Shown here: positions 2,898 to 54,172 of the stretch, one piece after another | How positions within the stretch are numbered: the first letter of the stretch is position 1 | How the letters are laid out: every line of letters begins with the position of its first letter | From: Candidatus Levyibacteriota bacterium | GTDB lineage: Bacteria; Patescibacteriota; Microgenomatia; Levybacterales; UBA12049 | Assembly (NCBI GenBank): GCA_041906785.1 | Contig: JAYRIM010000028.1 | Span: 121,661 to 185,660, forward strand | DNA: 64,000 nt | Reading direction: 5' to 3' | The notes under the pieces: model-generated | Databases searched by the model: none | What the model saw: the letters and a program-made list of their open reading frames with translations, nothing else | Told to the model about the DNA's origin: nothing | Translations under genes and position numbers: made by a program

Positions 2898-3434
2898 TTA
2901 TTTCTTGTCGGCAGAAGTTATAGCATTTGTTATTTCTTTCATGTTTTGCTCTGAAAAATAAAGAACATTTTTGAAATTTTCCTTGTGTTCTTTCGGAACT
3001 GTAGAGATAAATTTTTTTAAATATCTTTGGTGAACAGAAGATGCAAGTTTCAATCTTTCAAATGTTTCATCCTTGATCTTTGCAGGGTTTTGTTTTACCA
3101 AATTACTTATTAATGTCATATTATTTTCTGCTTTTAATGCAGTATCTAATGCAAGTTTATAATTTTTTTTATCTATTAGAGAATTCGCTGCATTAATTCC
3201 CTTGTCTGTTTGCAAAACATAAAAATCGACTTTTTTAATAGTATCTGTTATCAAGATGGGAGTAATCTTGTCTCTAATTTTTTTAAGTGAATACAATGGA
3301 TTATCTGGTAAAATCCCAGGATATGCGAGGGAGTAATCTGCAGATTTTTCGCCTTTTGCGAATGTTGTAGTTGGTAAAATTACTGTAGATAGTAAAAGAA
3401 CAAAGAAAATAAAAAATGCAATTTTTTGTAACAT
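2898..3434 (-). CDS. secreted/membrane-anchored hypothetical protein
   Basis: N-terminal hydrophobic signal-like segment; no catalytic motif seen. Confidence 0.35.
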   Translation of the reverse strand: MLQKIAFFIFFVLLLSTVILPTTTFAKGEKSADYSLAYPGILPDNPLYSLKKIRDKITPILITDTIKKVDFYVLQTDKGINAANSLIDKKNYKLALDTALKAENNMTLISNLVKQNPAKIKDETFERLKLASSVHQRYLKKFISTVPKEHKENFKNVLYFSEQNMKEITNAITSADKK

Positions 3435-10010: not shown

Positions 10011-10937
10011 ATGGATAGAAGAAAAAAATTTAAATTAATAATGATTTCCGCAATGTATGAAAATGGCGGAAACACAACTCACCGTTTCCTCGATGGCCAT
10101 CCTCAACTATTCGTTTATCCATTTGAATCGCAACCTGGAACTTTTCTAGTCTCTGATTATTTAACGACATTATTTCCGCAGAAATACCGATGGCCTGAAC
10201 TTTCTATAGCAGGAAATATTTCTGATGATTATGAGTTATTGATTGATGAAGAATTAAAAAGACATGTTAAAACTCCATTCGCAAGTAAGTTTAAAGATGC
10301 GCATATGGATTTAACGGATAAAAACAGAAAAAAAATCTTTTTAGATATTTTAAAAAAGAAACCAAGAACACGTGCAAATATCGTAGAAGCCTACTATGTA
10401 TCTACATTTGAAGCCTGGAAAGACTATCAAAGATCAGGAAAAGAAATTGCTTATGTTGGATATAGTCCTATCATAGGAGTAGATGCAGAAAAAATTTTCA
10501 GTGATTTTCCTGATGCACATGTCATTCATGTAGTGCGTAATCCTTATTCAGCATATGGGGATACGAAGAAACGTCCAGTGCCGTATTCCATATCCCGTTA
10601 TATGCAAACATGGAATATTGTTCAACTTATGGCATTAAACTTCGCAGCAATGTATCCAAGACAATTTCATATAATTAAATTTGAAGATTTAGTAGCAAGC
10701 CCTAAAAAATTATTTCAAGAATTAGCTCCTAAACTAGGTATTAGATATGCAGAAACACTTGAATATCCTTCTTGGAACGGTAAAAAGCTTGAAAAAGTTG
10801 TCCCATGGGGAACAATTATGACTCCAACGACGGATTTTAATAAGCAAGTAAAAGGTGAATTAACAAAAAAAGAATATGATGCAATTAAAGAACAGACAAG
10901 TGTGATTAATAAACTGTTAGGATATGACCGATTATAA
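10011..10937 (+). CDS. sulfotransferase-family protein (putative carbohydrate sulfotransferase)
   Basis: N-terminal SAMYENGGNTT resembles the 5'-PSB loop (PKSGTT). IHVVRNPYSAYGD resembles the 3'-PB region. C-terminal FEDLVASPKKLFQELAPKLGIRY matches the typical sulfotransferase tail (yEDLvadPe..l..ic.FLGl.y). Confidence 0.5.
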   Translation: MDRRKKFKLIMISAMYENGGNTTHRFLDGHPQLFVYPFESQPGTFLVSDYLTTLFPQKYRWPELSIAGNISDDYELLIDEELKRHVKTPFASKFKDAHMDLTDKNRKKIFLDILKKKPRTRANIVEAYYVSTFEAWKDYQRSGKEIAYVGYSPIIGVDAEKIFSDFPDAHVIHVVRNPYSAYGDTKKRPVPYSISRYMQTWNIVQLMALNFAAMYPRQFHIIKFEDLVASPKKLFQELAPKLGIRYAETLEYPSWNGKKLEKVVPWGTIMTPTTDFNKQVKGELTKKEYDAIKEQTSVINKLLGYDRL

Positions 10938-11997
10938 GAAATTCGGTTTTTCAAAAAAAGAACTTCAAAAACATTCTTCACTTCAAAAAAAAACTTTTTT
11001 CTTAAAAACAGAATCGTGTTTTACTCCCAAAATATTTCTAGCAAACAAAAAAAAAGTTATTAAAAACAGAACAGTTAAATCAATAATTGATTTATATTTT
11101 GGCAAACAACAAGCTTCTGTTTTCGCTATTAAGAATGGTACACTTCACGTTCTTTATAGAATTGTTATTAATGATAAAGCATATATACTACGAATTAACA
11201 AGTTTTCAAAAAACTATAAAGAATTCTCGTTCTTTACTGAACAATGGATTTACGAAGTTTTACATGCTAATAAACTTTCTTCTTTAAATGTTATAGCAGT
11301 TGATATCTCTCGCAAAATTTTTCCTTTTGACTTTCAAATTATTGAAGAGGTTCCTGGAGTATCATTATTCGAATTAGGTAGAGAGCGAAAGATTGCATAT
11401 AAACAACACTATAATTTAGGTATTTATATAGCTAGTGTTCATAAAAATAAAACTTCCGGTTTTGGTCCTTTTTCAATAGATGATATTTTTCTAGAAAAAG
11501 GAATAGGTATCCATAACAGCTGGAAAGACTTCGTTTTTTTAAATCTTGAAGCGCACATTGGATACTGTATTAAACATAAGTTATTAGATAATACTAGCGC
11601 TCAAAAAATTGAGACATATTTTTCACATTTAGATAAAAGACTTTTTTACGTTGATCCTGTTCTACTTCATGGTGATATTGCAAATCATAATGTATTTGTC
11701 AAAGGAAATAAAATTTCTGGTGTAATAGATTGGGAAGATAGCATTTCTGGAGACCCAGTATATGATATAGCTTATTTTGGTACTGGTTGTTATAGAAATG
11801 AACAGTGGCTTTCGGCATTTTTAGACGGTTATAAAATAGTAAAATCTTTACCAAAAGACTTTGAAAAAAAATACTGGTTCTATTATCTACGAATTGCGAT
11901 TGCAAAATCTATTATTAGACATGCGACTAATAAAAAAAATAGAAACTTTGGAAAGAGAATAGAATATGGTTTAGAGAAACTCGAATCTCTTGTGTAA
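10924..11997 (+). CDS. APH/choline-kinase-like phosphotransferase (putative sugar or small-molecule kinase)
   Basis: Brenner and activation motifs LLHGDIANHNVFV ... VIDWEDSISGDPVYD, typical of the aminoglycoside phosphotransferase/CotS family. Confidence 0.7.
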   Translation: MTDYKKFGFSKKELQKHSSLQKKTFFLKTESCFTPKIFLANKKKVIKNRTVKSIIDLYFGKQQASVFAIKNGTLHVLYRIVINDKAYILRINKFSKNYKEFSFFTEQWIYEVLHANKLSSLNVIAVDISRKIFPFDFQIIEEVPGVSLFELGRERKIAYKQHYNLGIYIASVHKNKTSGFGPFSIDDIFLEKGIGIHNSWKDFVFLNLEAHIGYCIKHKLLDNTSAQKIETYFSHLDKRLFYVDPVLLHGDIANHNVFVKGNKISGVIDWEDSISGDPVYDIAYFGTGCYRNEQWLSAFLDGYKIVKSLPKDFEKKYWFYYLRIAIAKSIIRHATNKKNRNFGKRIEYGLEKLESLV

Positions 11998-38964: not shown

Positions 38965-39590
38965 TGAATATGAGAACATTTAAGACAGAAGGGATTGTTA
39001 TAAAGAGAAGGAATGTTGGCGAAGCAGATCGGATAATTACTATTTTTTCTAAAGATCATGGTAAATTACAAATAAAAGCTTCAGGTGTTAGAAAAATCAC
39101 AAGCCGCCGATCTCCTCATATCGAATTATTAAACTACGTTAATCTTACATTGTATACAGGTAAGACGTATCCTATATTAGTAGAAGCACAATCGAAAGAA
39201 AATTTTTCTACACTCAAAGAAGATTTACATAAAGTAGGACTCGCGTATCATATTTGTGAATTAATTGATGGTCTCTGCCCTGAAGGTCAGGAACACGAAT
39301 CAGTCTTTGAATTATTAAAAAGAACACTTGTCATCCTGAGTCCCGATGGATATCTGGGCGAAGGATCCCCAATGTACAATGATGCCGGAGATTCTTCGTC
39401 CTTCGACAAACTCACGACTCAGAATGACTTAGTTTTTATAATTCATGAATTTGAAGTAGAGCTTTTAGCATTGTTAGGTTATTGGAGAGGTTCACAAGAA
39501 GTAGCAAAAACGCTTGACACTCAACATATGATAGAGAATATTCTTGAAAGAAAATTAAAAAGCCGTAACATCTTCGCAAAACTTAGTTAA
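38964..39590 (+). CDS. recO: DNA repair protein RecO, carrying a 33-codon in-frame palindromic-element insertion
   Basis: MRTFKTEGIVIKRRNVGEADRIITIFSKDHGKLQIKASGVRK is the RecO N-terminal OB fold. Confidence 0.7.
   Translation: MNMRTFKTEGIVIKRRNVGEADRIITIFSKDHGKLQIKASGVRKITSRRSPHIELLNYVNLTLYTGKTYPILVEAQSKENFSTLKEDLHKVGLAYHICELIDGLCPEGQEHESVFELLKRTLVILSPDGYLGEGSPMYNDAGDSSSFDKLTTQNDLVFIIHEFEVELLALLGYWRGSQEVAKTLDTQHMIENILERKLKSRNIFAKLS
39330..39428. mobile_element. MITE-like palindromic element copy (99 nt, 33 codons), in frame inside recO
   Basis: Left arm GTCATCCTGAGTCCCGATGG; right arm ...GACTCAGAATGAC; GGATCC near the centre. Encodes VILSPDGYLGEGSPMYNDAGDSSSFDKLTTQND. Confidence 0.6.
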
Positions 39591-40549: not shown

Positions 40550-42055
40550 ATGGCTGAGAACATTATGGATAAAATTGTCGCACTTGCAAAACGCCGTGGG
40601 TTTATCTATCCAGGTTCAGATATATATGGTGGTCTGGCTAATACATATGACTATGGACCAATGGGTACTGAGTTACTCCGTAATATAAAAAATCTTTGGT
40701 GGAAAACATTTGTTCATAATAGAGAAGATATAGTAGGTCTTGATGCAAGTGTGATTTCTCATCATCGTATATGGGAAGCGTCTGGACATGCGACAGGGTT
40801 TTCCGATGCACTTGTTGATTGTAAAAAATGTAAAAACAGAAAACGAGCTGATCATCTAATAGAAGAGTGGTTAGAGGAACACAGTAAAGATGTCGATATT
40901 GATGTCATCTTGAGTGGAACGAAGGATCTTATGCAAGATTCTTCGCCAAGGGCTCAGAATGACAAGGCAGTCAAAATAACAAAAGAAGAGTTAGAAAAAG
41001 CTCTTGAACTTAAAAAAGTTGAAGGTTGGTCTGAAGAAAAGATGGATGAGTTTATTAAAAATACTCGTATTCCATGTCCTCAATGTAAAGCAGTTGATTG
41101 GACACCTGTGCGTAGATTTAACCTTCTTTTTCCGGTAAAGCTCGGAATTGTCGAAGGAGAACAAAGTCTGGCTTATCTTCGTGGAGAGACAGCCCAAGGA
41201 ATGTTTGTTGATTTTCGACACGTAGTCGATTCCACTCGTGTTCGTTTACCATTTGGTATCGCACAGTTAGGAAAAAGTTTTAGAAATGAAATAACGTTAG
41301 GTAATTCCGTCTTTAGAACAATAGAGTTTGAACAAGGAGAAATAGAATATTTCTTCGATCCGGAAAAAACACTTTGGGAGAAATTATTTGAAGAATGGAA
41401 GGAACAGATGTGGAATTTCGTTTTGTGGGAACTTGGAATTAATGAGAAAAATGTCAGATGGCGAGTACATACAGATGAAGAACGATCTTTTTATAGTAAA
41501 CGGACAGAAGATCTCGAGTATAATTTTCCTTTCGGATATAAAGAATTATGGGGATTAGCATATCGAACTGATTATGATTTAAAACAGCACATGCAGTTTT
41601 CAGGAAAAGATCTTTCTATCACTGATCCTTATACCCAAAAGAAAGTTATTCCTCATGTTATCGAGCCTGCTGTTGGTATTAACCGTTTGCTTTTGATGGT
41701 GTTATGTGAAGCATATTCTGAGATAGATGACCGGGTAGTGCTAAGTTTGAAACCAAAACTTGCTCCATATAAAGTCGCAGTATTTCCATTACTTGCGAAT
41801 AAAGAAGAATTAGTGAAAAAAGCGAGAGAAATCTACGGTTCTTTAAAGCCTCATATGAATATCGCATGGGATGATAGAGGAAATATTGGTAAAAGGTATT
41901 TATACCAAGATGAGATTGGTACACCATGGTGTGTTACAGTAGATTTTCAAACACTTGAAGATGGAACAGTAACTGTTCGCGATCGCGATACGGCAGAGCA
42001 AGAAAGAGTGAAAGTTGAAGAGCTTACAACACACTTTAATAGCAGGTTAGCATAA
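40550..42055 (+). CDS. glyQS: glycine--tRNA ligase (dimeric alpha2 class II type)
   Basis: GLANTYDYGPMGTELLRNIKNLWW, class II motifs, C-terminal anticodon-binding domain. Confidence 0.9.
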   Translation: MAENIMDKIVALAKRRGFIYPGSDIYGGLANTYDYGPMGTELLRNIKNLWWKTFVHNREDIVGLDASVISHHRIWEASGHATGFSDALVDCKKCKNRKRADHLIEEWLEEHSKDVDIDVILSGTKDLMQDSSPRAQNDKAVKITKEELEKALELKKVEGWSEEKMDEFIKNTRIPCPQCKAVDWTPVRRFNLLFPVKLGIVEGEQSLAYLRGETAQGMFVDFRHVVDSTRVRLPFGIAQLGKSFRNEITLGNSVFRTIEFEQGEIEYFFDPEKTLWEKLFEEWKEQMWNFVLWELGINEKNVRWRVHTDEERSFYSKRTEDLEYNFPFGYKELWGLAYRTDYDLKQHMQFSGKDLSITDPYTQKKVIPHVIEPAVGINRLLLMVLCEAYSEIDDRVVLSLKPKLAPYKVAVFPLLANKEELVKKAREIYGSLKPHMNIAWDDRGNIGKRYLYQDEIGTPWCVTVDFQTLEDGTVTVRDRDTAEQERVKVEELTTHFNSRLA

Positions 42056-51117: not shown

Positions 51118-51184
51118 GTCATTCTGAGCGTAGCGAAGAATCCAAGAGGTCGTTTAAAAGATGTTTCGCTTCACTCAACATGAC
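51118..51184. mobile_element. short copy of the same palindromic element, immediately 5' of the GIY-YIG gene
   Basis: GTCATTCTGAGCGTAGCGAAGAATCC ... GATGTTTCGCTTCACTCAACATGAC. The GIY-YIG ATG (51180) lies in the right arm; the ftsI stop is 2 nt upstream of the left arm. Confidence 0.55.
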
Positions 51185-51467
51185 AAATATATATTGGGTT
51201 TATATTCTAACGAACTGGAACAATAAAGTACTCTATGTTGGTGTAACCAATAATTTAATTAAAAGAATATATGGACATAAAAATAAATTAGTTGAAGGAT
51301 TTAGCAGTAAATATAACCTTACTAAGTTAGTATATTTTGAAGAGTTCAATTATATAAATGATGCGATTGCAGCTGAGAAAAAAATTAAAGGATGGGTGAG
51401 GATTAAGAAGAATAAACTAATTGAATCAGTGAATCCAGAGTGGGAAGATTTGACTTTGTCATTCTGA
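51180..51467 (+). CDS. GIY-YIG nuclease-domain protein (stand-alone, 95 aa)
   Basis: IYWVYILTNWNNKVLYVGVTNNLIKRIYGHK matches the GIY-x10-YIG core. Its start and stop codons lie inside palindromic element arms. Confidence 0.8.
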   Translation: MTNIYWVYILTNWNNKVLYVGVTNNLIKRIYGHKNKLVEGFSSKYNLTKLVYFEEFNYINDAIAAEKKIKGWVRIKKNKLIESVNPEWEDLTLSF

Positions 51468-51554
51468 GTGAAACGAAGAATCTTTCGTAATTGATAAGAT
51501 CCTTGCGCCACCGCTAAAGCTTTAGCGACACGCGGTCACTTCGTTCAGGATGAC
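51458..51554. mobile_element. palindromic element copy immediately 3' of the GIY-YIG gene
   Basis: GTCATTCTGAGTGAAACGAAGAATCT ... GTCACTTCGTTCAGGATGAC with an internal perfect palindrome CGCTAAAGCTTTAGCG. The GIY-YIG stop TGA is the TCTGA of the left arm. Confidence 0.6.
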
Positions 51555-52864: not shown

Positions 52865-54172
52865 ATGTGGCAATCACTGAAGAACACCTACCATCTTGCC
52901 CAGTCTTTTTTGGCGAACGTCTATTATGGATTTCCGGCAAAAAAACTGACTATTATCGGTGTGACCGGTACGAGTGGTAAAACGACAACTGCTTTAATGA
53001 TCTATTCGATGCTGCAAGCCGCAGGGTATAAAGTCTCTGTGTTAACGACTATTAAAGCTATAATCGCTGGAAAAGAGTATGATACAGGTTTTCATGTGAC
53101 GACACCTGATCCTCACGTTCTTCCTAAATATCTAAAACAAGCTGTAGATAATGGTGACACACATTTCGTCCTTGAAGTTTCTTCTCACGCTCTCGATCAG
53201 AACCGTGCTGCTTTTGTGCCTTTTAAGATTGGAGTTCTTACAACATTGGCACATGAGCATTTAGATTATCATAAAACTTTCATAAATTATGCTCGAGCGA
53301 AATTTAAGCTATTATTCGCATCAGAATGCTCCGTTTTGCCTAAGGGTTTATTTAATAATGCAGAAATTAGAGATTTACTGGATGATCTTACAAAAAAGAA
53401 AAAAATAAAAACATTTGGTCTGAATTCTGGAGAAGAAACACAAAAAAAATGGCATTTTAAACTGACAATGCCAGGTGAATATAGTTTACGTAATGCATTG
53501 GCTGCTGCAACTGTAGGAGATTACCTTGGGATAGATAAAAAAACGATCACTGAAGCGCTTGAGAATTTTTCAGCAATACCTGGAAGATTTGAAGAAATTC
53601 CAAACAGACGAGGTTTACGTATTATTATTGATTTCGCGCATAAACCAGACGCACTTGAGGCTGTTTTACATGTTGCACGATCTCTTGTGAAAGAGAAAGA
53701 AAAGGTGATTGTTTTATACGGATGTGCAAGTGAACGCGATGTATTAAAGCGGCCAATTATGGGGAAAATAAGCGGCCTCTTATCAGATGTGACCGTATTG
53801 ACAGATGAAGATCCACGAAGAGAAGATCCAATGAAAATAATTGATGAAATAGCACAGGGGTGTCTTGAAAGTGGTGCTAAGGAAGGTGTCATTCTGAGCG
53901 ATAGCGAAGAATCTAATGGCGATTTGTACAAAGTTGCAGGGGATCCTTCGTCCGATGGGAATCGGACTCAGGATGACAAACAACATATATTTTTTAAAAT
54001 TCCAAATAGAGAGGAAGCGATTGACTTTGCAATTAATACAATTGCAAGAAAAGGAGATATCATTCTACTTTGTGGAAAAGGACATGAGCAGTCGATGAAC
54101 TATAATGGCGTTGAGAAACCTTGGAGTGAACACAAAGCAGTAGAAAAAGCATTGAATAAAAAAGATTTATGA
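52865..54172 (+). CDS. murE: UDP-N-acetylmuramoyl-tripeptide synthetase MurE-like Mur ligase, with a ~30-aa in-frame palindromic-element insertion near the C-terminus
   Basis: GVTGTSGKTTT P-loop; C-terminal CGKGHEQ; sits within the dcw cluster. Confidence 0.8.
   Translation: MWQSLKNTYHLAQSFLANVYYGFPAKKLTIIGVTGTSGKTTTALMIYSMLQAAGYKVSVLTTIKAIIAGKEYDTGFHVTTPDPHVLPKYLKQAVDNGDTHFVLEVSSHALDQNRAAFVPFKIGVLTTLAHEHLDYHKTFINYARAKFKLLFASECSVLPKGLFNNAEIRDLLDDLTKKKKIKTFGLNSGEETQKKWHFKLTMPGEYSLRNALAAATVGDYLGIDKKTITEALENFSAIPGRFEEIPNRRGLRIIIDFAHKPDALEAVLHVARSLVKEKEKVIVLYGCASERDVLKRPIMGKISGLLSDVTVLTDEDPRREDPMKIIDEIAQGCLESGAKEGVILSDSEESNGDLYKVAGDPSSDGNRTQDDKQHIFFKIPNREEAIDFAINTIARKGDIILLCGKGHEQSMNYNGVEKPWSEHKAVEKALNKKDL
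53888..53976. mobile_element. palindromic element copy inserted in frame inside murE
   Basis: GTCATTCTGAGCGATAGCGAAGAATCT ... GGATCCTTCGTCCGATGGGAATCGGACTCAGGATGAC. Encodes the extra loop VILSDSEESNGDLYKVAGDPSSDGNRTQDD, which is absent from canonical MurE. Confidence 0.6.

Follow-up and report, generated by a model that had tools for sequence, protein, structure and literature searches.

A palindromic hairpin doublet inserted in frame in murE of a Candidatus Levyibacteriota bacterium, from a repeat family associated with a GIY-YIG nuclease gene

Introduction

A 64,000-nt stretch of DNA from a Candidatus Levyibacteriota bacterium (contig JAYRIM010000028.1, positions 121,661 to 185,660; hereafter the window) carries a palindromic repeat element in frame within murE, and further members of the same repeat family within recO and glyQS and on both sides of a small GIY-YIG nuclease gene. 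By analogy, the closest described counterparts appear to be the Rickettsia palindromic elements (RPEs) in function and the REPIN/RAYT system in architecture. RPEs are short palindromic repeats that lie in frame in Rickettsia genes, are translated together with them and are predicted to be compatible with the fold of the host protein (Ogata et al. 2000, Science 290:347, and 2002, Genome Res 12:808, as summarised in PMC10969869). The repeat described here resembles them in being a palindromic multi-copy sequence that sits in frame in unrelated housekeeping genes of a reduced genome, keeps the frame open and contains no transposase. It differs in size (60-99 nt, against about 100-150 nt for RPEs), in its Patescibacteria/Levybacteria rather than Rickettsia host, in its construction from two tagged hairpins, inverted to form a doublet and with stems that covary, and in belonging to a family that spans phyla and is linked to a GIY-YIG nuclease gene. 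It is therefore treated here as an RPE analogue and not a member, set apart from RPE-1 to RPE-10 by the phylum of its host. We know of no partner enzyme for RPEs.

REPIN/RAYT systems comprise doublets of repetitive extragenic palindromic (REP) sequences together with a Y1/HUH transposase, the REP-associated tyrosine transposase or RAYT (PMC3116915, PMC3337134). The present family is like them in having two inverted hairpins with a short spacer, a tag at the hairpin foot, many stem variants that preserve pairing, and a small nuclease gene flanked by the repeats. The tag here is T-GTCA, however, and not GTAG or CGTC; the flanked gene encodes a GIY-YIG protein (PF01541, UPF0213-like) and not an HUH tyrosine transposase; REPs lie outside genes, but three of the five window copies lie within ORFs and keep their frame; and the GIY-YIG nuclease shows high similarity between phyla, suggestive of horizontal spread, in contrast to RAYTs, for which inheritance is mostly vertical. 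Elements of the MITE type (miniature inverted-repeat transposable elements) with in-frame fusions to host open reading frames (ORFs) include Coxiella QMITE1 (PMC5896051) and ERIC, BOX and Correia (PMC10969869). Inverted terminal modules, small size (60-99 nt here), lack of coding content and occasional in-frame fusions are features in common, but the elements in the window show neither a target-site duplication nor a known DDE-type parent insertion sequence. GIY-YIG proteins of Patescibacteria are mentioned in PMC12455944 only as a horizontally transferred gene, and the open-access full-text literature yielded nothing that describes the repeat or connects it with a GIY-YIG gene, an absence that is not proof of novelty. 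The murE element is probably a selfish hairpin doublet carried in frame in a permissive MurE loop, and its family is probably tied to the GIY-YIG nuclease.

Results and Discussion

The insertion in murE

murE, an essential gene of the cell wall (52865..54172, + strand), is a 435-aa ORF in which Mur_ligase_M covers residues 33-217 and Mur_ligase_C residues 240-406, the latter spanning the insert. The element occupies 53888..53977 (+), a length of 90 nt that adds 30 codons in frame (MurE residues 342-371) and encodes the peptide VILSDSEESNGDLYKVAGDPSSDGNRTQDD (VILS...TQDD) between ...GAKEG and KQHIFFKIP...GDIILLCGKGHEQ. A precise empty site would join the sequences on either side of the doublet, GCTAAGGAAGGT / AAACAACATATA, and one peptide predicted from translation of the insert region is VILSDSEESNGDLYK. 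A first-pass annotation, made from the letters of this DNA, had proposed that a palindromic element of the family flanking the GIY-YIG gene is inserted in frame in the C-terminal domain of MurE, and the present analysis supports that proposal. The roughly 30 extra residues that it placed between GAKEG and the conserved region are exactly 30 codons, in frame; of its range, 53888-53976, the start holds and the end falls one base short, omitting the final C of ...GGATGAC.

The best solved relatives of the host protein are the MurE enzymes of T. maritima, M. tuberculosis and E. coli, which have 1-5 residues at the position of the insert. In residue-by-residue alignments, M. tuberculosis MurE (2wtz) has residue 475 opposite ...GAKEGV and then 477 opposite KIPNR, T. 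maritima MurE (4bub) jumps from 418 to 420 across the insert, and E. coli MurE (1e8c), which had been said to have no such loop and indeed has none, places 5 residues (437-441) opposite 42 residues of this protein. An AlphaFold model of MurE, made with a 40-sequence alignment, kept the fold (mean predicted local distance difference test score, pLDDT, 90.6; predicted template modelling score, pTM, 0.87), with pLDDT values of 72, 70 and 45 for the 10-residue blocks over the insert. The low-confidence blocks are consistent with a protruding, poorly ordered loop.

Among 5.8 billion proteins the closest MurE is 71% identical and the exact window MurE is present once; matches about 58-60% identical carry the label Candidatus Levybacteria. 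Relatives were compared through 84 murE-region loci of Microgenomates (L001-L084, each at most about 21 kb) and through their proteins, which bear P numbers (P0001 being the window MurE). An alignment of 40 MurE relatives showed the segment between GA.E and H.FFKIP to be hypervariable. The loop is absent in P0021, P0071, Daviesbacteria and more distant Microgenomates, and in most Levybacteria it is an unrelated peptide of 10-13 residues, often QISNFKFQISN-like or WQMASGKWQMA-like; it is long in a few. The alignment against related MurE that the first-pass annotation had called for thus finds no equivalent peptide in close relatives.

Two relatives carry a repeat of this kind at the same loop. 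L001 (P0008, 64% identical) has a 72-nt doublet of the same family, encoding VILSDSEESKKRKDPFLSKADQDD; over 29 nt at the left end, made up of the module and three bases of spacer, it agrees with the window copy at 28 positions. In L082 (P0020) the doublet belongs to a sister family, is 56 nt long with one extra base, and uses the alternative permissive frame, giving SHPELVSGS...KQVRHD. A neighbour-joining tree made after masking the loop, which is rough and star-like, puts the three repeat-bearing proteins P0001, P0008 and P0020 in different clades and not as sisters, and groups the window MurE with P0003, whose unrelated loop is CQISNLKFQISNE. This suggests that the MurE loop is a hot spot, either for independent hits or for repeated replacement.

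These comparisons support the reading of the 90-nt murE element as a lineage-specific insertion rather than an ancestral loop, since solved MurE proteins have 1-5 residues at the site and relatives have no loop, an unrelated loop or a different copy of the repeat family. It is very improbable that MurE of this lineage has a loop of ancestral or adaptive origin here, its 30 residues merely resembling the repeat. The site is naturally variable, as the 10-13-residue loop of most Levybacteria attests, but the insert peptide is not shared by the closest relatives, the DNA beneath it carries two complete modules (41.7 and 38.5 bits), the copy is homologous over its full length to the one in recO and has a repeat-like G+C content, and none of the MurE relatives that bear a repeat there is a sister of the window protein. 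Short repeats are also a classic cause of mis-joins in metagenome assemblies, so that the repeat might have been joined wrongly into murE of this metagenome-assembled genome. Such an artefact would be extraordinary, however: the murE frame and the gene order continue on both flanks, the spacer of the murE doublet is unique, and independent assemblies from other samples (L001 and L082) have family members at the same loop.

Several other sequences were seen at this site. QISNxKFQISN or WQMASGKWQMA loops occur in P0002, P0003, P0005, P0007, P0015, P0037, P0046, P0004 and P0028. In L002 (10976-11060) the loop DNA is a 14-nt tandem (CAAATTTCAAATCT)x2 with a 7-nt period, translated in frame; its sequence makes it a repeat-derived loop of another kind at this position. 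The L003 loop (10979-11092), HRVRGNPPAGGQISE, contains a perfect 16-nt palindrome, TCCGCCAGCTGGCGGA, and may represent a third, unrelated hairpin repeat. L084 has a Y1_Tnp gene (PF01797, IS200/RAYT-like; 454-1104) directly upstream of murE (1134-2426), and in the MurE of this relative (P0063) the same loop holds a long insert of another sequence, LESKIKNSELNSARNLPRFLKGLDLRANQGLTP. At a different site in murE, the variable segment before ...TFGL, L008 carries a single module in frame (10494-10529, - strand, 34.4 bits) that reads EILRLATLAQDD; single modules, and not doublets only, can therefore be carried in frame. A decayed module looked for in the window's murE at 53350-53400, after the L008 case, gave no convincing similarity. 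In the window murE and murC overlap by 4 nt, and in some Levybacteria, though not in the window, a Cu-oxidase_4 gene (PF02578) lies between them (L001 5975-6706; L083 4721-5467).

Structure of the hairpin doublet

The element consists of two hairpin modules, inverted relative to each other, and stem pairing takes place within each arm of this doublet. Read 5' to 3', a module begins with T-GTCA; then come a stem segment of four variable bases, GA, a closing base that is usually G, and a variable tip. The 3' half has the base paired with the closing one, usually C, then GA, the four complementary stem bases and TC-T, which gives a 5-bp stem overall and sets the two GA dinucleotides opposite each other as tandem G.A mismatches. 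In murE the left module (53888..53913, +) reads GTC-ATTCT-GA-G-CGATAG-C-GA-AGAAT-C, with the stem ATTCT/AGAAT, and matches a covariance model of the module at 41.7 bits (E = 4e-6). It is followed by a 28-nt spacer (53914..53941, +) containing the palindrome TTTGTACAAA, where the recO copy has TGTACA, and by the inverted right module (53942..53977, -), which has the stem ATCCT/AGGAT and a tip stem TCCGAT/ATCGGA and scores 38.5 bits.

The 106-nt murE element region folds at -41.3 kcal/mol, compared with -24.1 +/- 3.1 for shuffled sequences (z = -5.55). The energy-minimised fold pairs the outer arms, as if the element were one long palindrome. That structure was rejected: stem variants covary within each module, and the arm-to-arm pairing is therefore contradicted. 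Compensation within modules is already seen among the ten modules of the window, which include ATTCT/AGAAT, ATCCT/AGGAT and ATGTT/AACAT (51160-51184). Across 1.74 Mb of loci, in which there are at least 9 stem variants, a left-stem tetramer is matched by its own complement in 396 cases; exchanging the tetramers between sites lowers the number to 44.7 +/- 6.9.

The covariance model was built from 13 modules and gave 272 matches in the GIY-YIG loci and the window. In 116 distinct modules taken from the 150 best matches, 99.7% of cells pair (21-55% in slid controls), and changes on both sides of a pair number 129 against 25 +/- 11 in shuffles, none of 500 shuffles reaching 129; this alignment was fitted to the model and so favours structure, a bias from which the tetramer-swap test, being tied to anchors only, is free. 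The T before GTCA is conserved in 81% of 384 modules and the T after TC in 77%, and the second GA, which the search did not impose, is conserved as well. On this comparative evidence the hairpin structure is evidently under selection.

Copies in the window

The motif GTCATYCTGAG occurs 11 times in the window with at most one mismatch, where 1.36 are expected, and none of 100 shuffles reached 11. The covariance model finds exactly 10 modules in the 64 kb, which make up five doublets, three in frame in genes and two bracketing the GIY-YIG gene. The recO doublet (39330..39428, +; 99 nt) is in frame, reads VILSPDGYLGEGSPMYNDAGDSSSFDKLTTQND and has the opposite orientation to the murE copy; the glyQS doublet (40904..40963, +; 60 nt), also in frame, reads VILSGTKDLMQDSSPRAQND. 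The other two are intergenic: one of 67 nt upstream of the GIY-YIG gene (51118..51184, +), whose right module has the stem ATGTT/AACAT, and one of 97 nt downstream (51458..51554, +), with the TGA of the gene inside its GTCATTCTGA.

Orthologues of recO and glyQS were compared directly, with gene order conserved in the relatives. The recO doublet is absent from all 13 syntenic RecO orthologues, and the glyQS copy is a clean addition of 20 residues relative to L003 (73% identical) and L004. The murE copy shares 74 identical positions with the reverse complement of the recO copy, over the full length and including the TGTACA-centred spacer, compared with 67 for the forward strand; the family has therefore inserted in both orientations. 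The doublets have a G+C content of 43-50% against 34% for the window. The murE arm had also been described as near-identical to the arms flanking the GIY-YIG gene. This is borne out for the left arm: aligned with the left arm of the upstream doublet it is identical in 25 of 27 columns, and with that of the downstream doublet in 25 of 28; it fails for the right arm, in which only the conserved core GATCCTTCG...CTCAGGATGAC is shared.

In other Microgenomates the gap between recO and glyQS is a recurrent site of doublets (L043 3009-3219, L016 4676-4770, L052 3155-3256), and in L043 it holds three tandem 59-nt copies.

Reading frame and translation

The termini of the doublet contain TGA in one frame at each end (GTCATTCTGA, TCAGAATGAC), and two of the three frames of a doublet whose length is a multiple of three therefore run into a stop. 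In either orientation the only open frame of such a doublet runs from GTC-ATT-CTG-AG... to ...CAG-RAT-GAC, encoding VILS...Q(N/D)D. All five genic doublets keep the frame of their gene open (window murE, 90 nt, recO, 99 nt, and glyQS, 60 nt; L001; L082). The three genic copies of the window are all multiples of three and free of stops, and the L082 copy uses the only other compatible combination of frames. The 66 non-genic doublets show no length bias (lengths modulo 3 of 19/25/22), and 23% of them are both a multiple of three and stop-free. At 0.23 per copy, the chance that five of five would keep the frame is roughly 6e-4.

These frame statistics support, indirectly, selection on a translated insert rather than on an excised RNA; the insert is predicted to be translated. 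Removal of the element by RNA excision or by intein-like splicing, leaving a mature MurE with no loop, is accordingly very unlikely. The region does have a very stable predicted transcript structure (the -41.3 kcal/mol fold above), and candidate phyla radiation (CPR) genomes carry self-splicing insertions in their rRNA genes. Yet genic copies keep the frame and avoid stops while non-genic copies do not, which would be needless if the RNA were excised, and an Rfam scan of the whole window at gathering thresholds matched no family, introns included. Inteins have at least about 130 residues, an N-terminal Cys, Ser or Thr, and a C-terminal His-Asn followed by Cys, Ser or Thr. Inserts of 20-33 residues are far too small, and the junctions, V...D and then K, are not intein-like. 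For the murE insert, with 30 residues that start with Val and end with Asp before Lys, an intein or mini-intein was ruled out.

The GIY-YIG gene and its association with the modules

The GIY-YIG nuclease gene (51180..51467, +) encodes a protein of 95 aa (PF01541, E = 6.7e-15) and is the candidate partner of the repeat family. It is chromosomal, lies in the division and cell wall (dcw) cluster and is in neither an intron nor an intein. Its ATG is supplied by the terminal ATGAC of the upstream doublet (51180-51184) and its TGA by the downstream GTCATTCTGA (51458-51467). The product is confined to the catalytic domain and lacks any recognisable extension for binding DNA, such as NUMOD, IENR1 or helix-turn-helix; residues Y8, Y19, G21, R29, H33 and E66 are invariant in 24 homologues. 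It has in common with homing endonucleases of the I-TevI type the GIY-YIG domain, the conserved Tyr, Arg, His and Glu, and a patchy, apparently horizontal distribution; it differs from them in its size of 95 aa and in having no separate DNA-binding domain, no intron or intein residence and few viral homologues. Against TIGR01453, the NCBIfam group I intron endonuclease model, it scores 19 bits where the cut-off is 56. Its likeness is rather to minimal GIY-YIG proteins of the UPF0213/YhbQ type: the family profile matches only the structural-genomics proteins UPF0213 BH0048 (1zg2) and EF2693 (1ywl), both distantly. To our knowledge the UPF0213-like family has no established function.

Homologues of the protein 65-82% identical include proteins labelled Patescibacteria, Smithella and Bacillota, compared with 71% for the best MurE relative, and the gene has apparently spread horizontally. 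As to a viral vehicle, 2.9 million viral contigs yielded only 9 close homologues, which is no evidence for carriage by phage.

The association with modules was measured in 80 metagenome loci fetched with the family profile, together with the window, a sample that holds 82 GIY-YIG genes (81 on metagenome contigs). Module density is 8.6/kb within 100 nt of these genes, 0.2/kb beyond 800 nt, and 0.04/kb in the murE-anchored loci, an enrichment of about 40-fold beside the gene over the 82 homologues. A module lies upstream of 66 of the 82 genes and downstream of 61, with both sides occupied in 55. The nearest upstream module is on the + strand in 50 of 67 cases and the nearest downstream module on the - strand in 49 of 64, so that module(+)-gene-module(-) is the commonest layout, and the same stem variant stands on both sides in 40 of 57. 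By this layout the gene usually takes the place that the spacer has in a doublet. The murE element looks, from its sequence, like an empty version of the gene-bearing unit.

The closest metagenome homologue of the GIY-YIG gene, in L085, has the doublet-gene-doublet layout of the window, again with its ATG in ATGAC. Downstream of this gene (3270-3330) two truncated module starts (TTGTCATTCTGAGCAATCATT, twice) precede a complete doublet, a hint that module 5' ends are duplicated locally or copied abortively. Many homologues in the database (P0134, P0156, P0164, P0168, P0173, P0175 and P0180 among them) have N- or C-terminal tails that are read-through of flanking modules, giving peptides such as DPSLRSG, SFASAQDD, VILSGTKDL, CHVERSETS and CHPEDRRDEGS. 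Judged from these sequences, module read-through is a systematic source of gene-call artefacts among the GIY-YIG homologues.

Origin and spread of the doublets

We propose that, in this lineage of Levybacteria, a doublet inserted into a permissive surface loop of the MurE C-terminal domain. Expressed along with the gene as RNA and protein, the insert would form a hydrophilic loop of 30 residues, poorly ordered and tolerated by the enzyme. Where the genome is compact, many landings would fall in genes, and those that persist would be the stop-free copies with a length divisible by three in tolerant surface loops; such a filter on frame and length would explain the three genic copies of the window, in recO, glyQS and murE. 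The GIY-YIG nuclease may cut at or near the base of the hairpin or cruciform, at the TGTCA tag, and the break and its repair would then spread the modules. The doublets, we infer, are or were mobile.

A number of observations weigh against this account. The murE element seems to replace about 13 resident codons when compared with its sister P0003, and the recO element about 7 (KLANYDY-like), although plain cut-and-paste predicts none; such replacement would fit break, resection and repair, or later trimming of the loop. None of the five copies has a target-site duplication in the form of a direct repeat, the flanking T...A being module consensus. The murE and recO copies are about 75-80% identical and the others alike in module cores only, so that no recent burst is seen, and with nearest relatives about 71-73% identical the insertion cannot be dated and there is no direct evidence of movement. 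Translation of the insert and activity of this MurE are predictions. The link with the nuclease is correlative. The window's own GIY-YIG gene has a minority layout, with a full doublet on each side. Modules occur in some of the 84 other Microgenomates murE loci, yet no GIY-YIG homologue was found in these loci, which span no more than about 21 kb each; tblastn against 81 of them gave none. The ends of gene-bearing units are of the doublet type, but the spacer edges of empty doublets match those of a gene-bearing unit on the same contig in 0 of 17 comparisons, which leaves a MITE-like derivation by deletion unsupported.

Several of these points bear on what drives the spread. The doublets together with the 95-aa UPF0213-type GIY-YIG gene may constitute an undescribed, phylum-spanning class of mobile DNA, a functional counterpart of REPIN/RAYT that uses another nuclease fold, with a minimal, structure-specific GIY-YIG enzyme that would recognise TGTCA-tagged hairpins. 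In streamlined CPR genomes, where intergenic space is scarce, the element would enter permissive loops of essential enzymes again and again (MurE at least three times, RecO and GlyRS) and so generate new surface loops on proteins; we put this forward tentatively, as a possibility that falls short of probable. The main rival, which we regard as rather unlikely, is that the doublets spread by other means (a Y1/HUH transposase, host recombination or slippage at hairpins) and that the GIY-YIG gene is a passenger, a homing parasite of the spacer. The module(+)-gene-module(-) layout fits homing of the gene into doublets equally well; empty doublets look unlike deletion derivatives of the gene-bearing unit, and modules occur in Microgenomates loci with no GIY-YIG gene nearby. 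That the GIY-YIG protein is a 95-aa catalytic domain lacking any recognisable DNA-binding domain also favours this rival, as does the Y1_Tnp gene of L084, directly upstream of a murE in which the same loop has a long insert of another sequence. Set against it are the roughly 40-fold enrichment of modules at 82 GIY-YIG genes from very different communities and the matching stem variants in 40 of 57 cases, which suggest a tight, co-evolving pair; no Y1 transposase lies near the copies in the window; and instead of the GTAG or CGTC tag of REPs the modules carry TGTCA. The present data do not separate the nuclease as driver from the nuclease as homing parasite. Even with a homing parasite, the murE insertion would still be a selfish in-frame repeat.

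Implications

Selfish palindromes in frame in essential genes have hitherto been viewed mainly as a curiosity of Rickettsia. Taken alone, the murE insertion is an RPE-like case in a new phylum; the wider interest is carried by the MurE hot spot and by the pairing of hairpins with a GIY-YIG gene across phyla. The presence of the repeat in three housekeeping genes within 15 kb of a free-standing CPR genome suggests that very compact genomes generally end up with in-frame insertions when repeats invade them. For annotation of metagenomes, the modules create spurious or extended ORFs, with tails such as DPSLRSG, SFASAQDD and VILS..., and so inflate apparent protein diversity. The recurrent hits at one MurE loop across Levybacteria suggest that the repeats are a real source of new protein loops. 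If the GIY-YIG nuclease does drive the repeats, the system would be a second, independent invention of the REPIN/RAYT life-style, and the TGTCA-tagged hairpins would provide a testable substrate and a first biological role for the uncharacterised UPF0213-type family.

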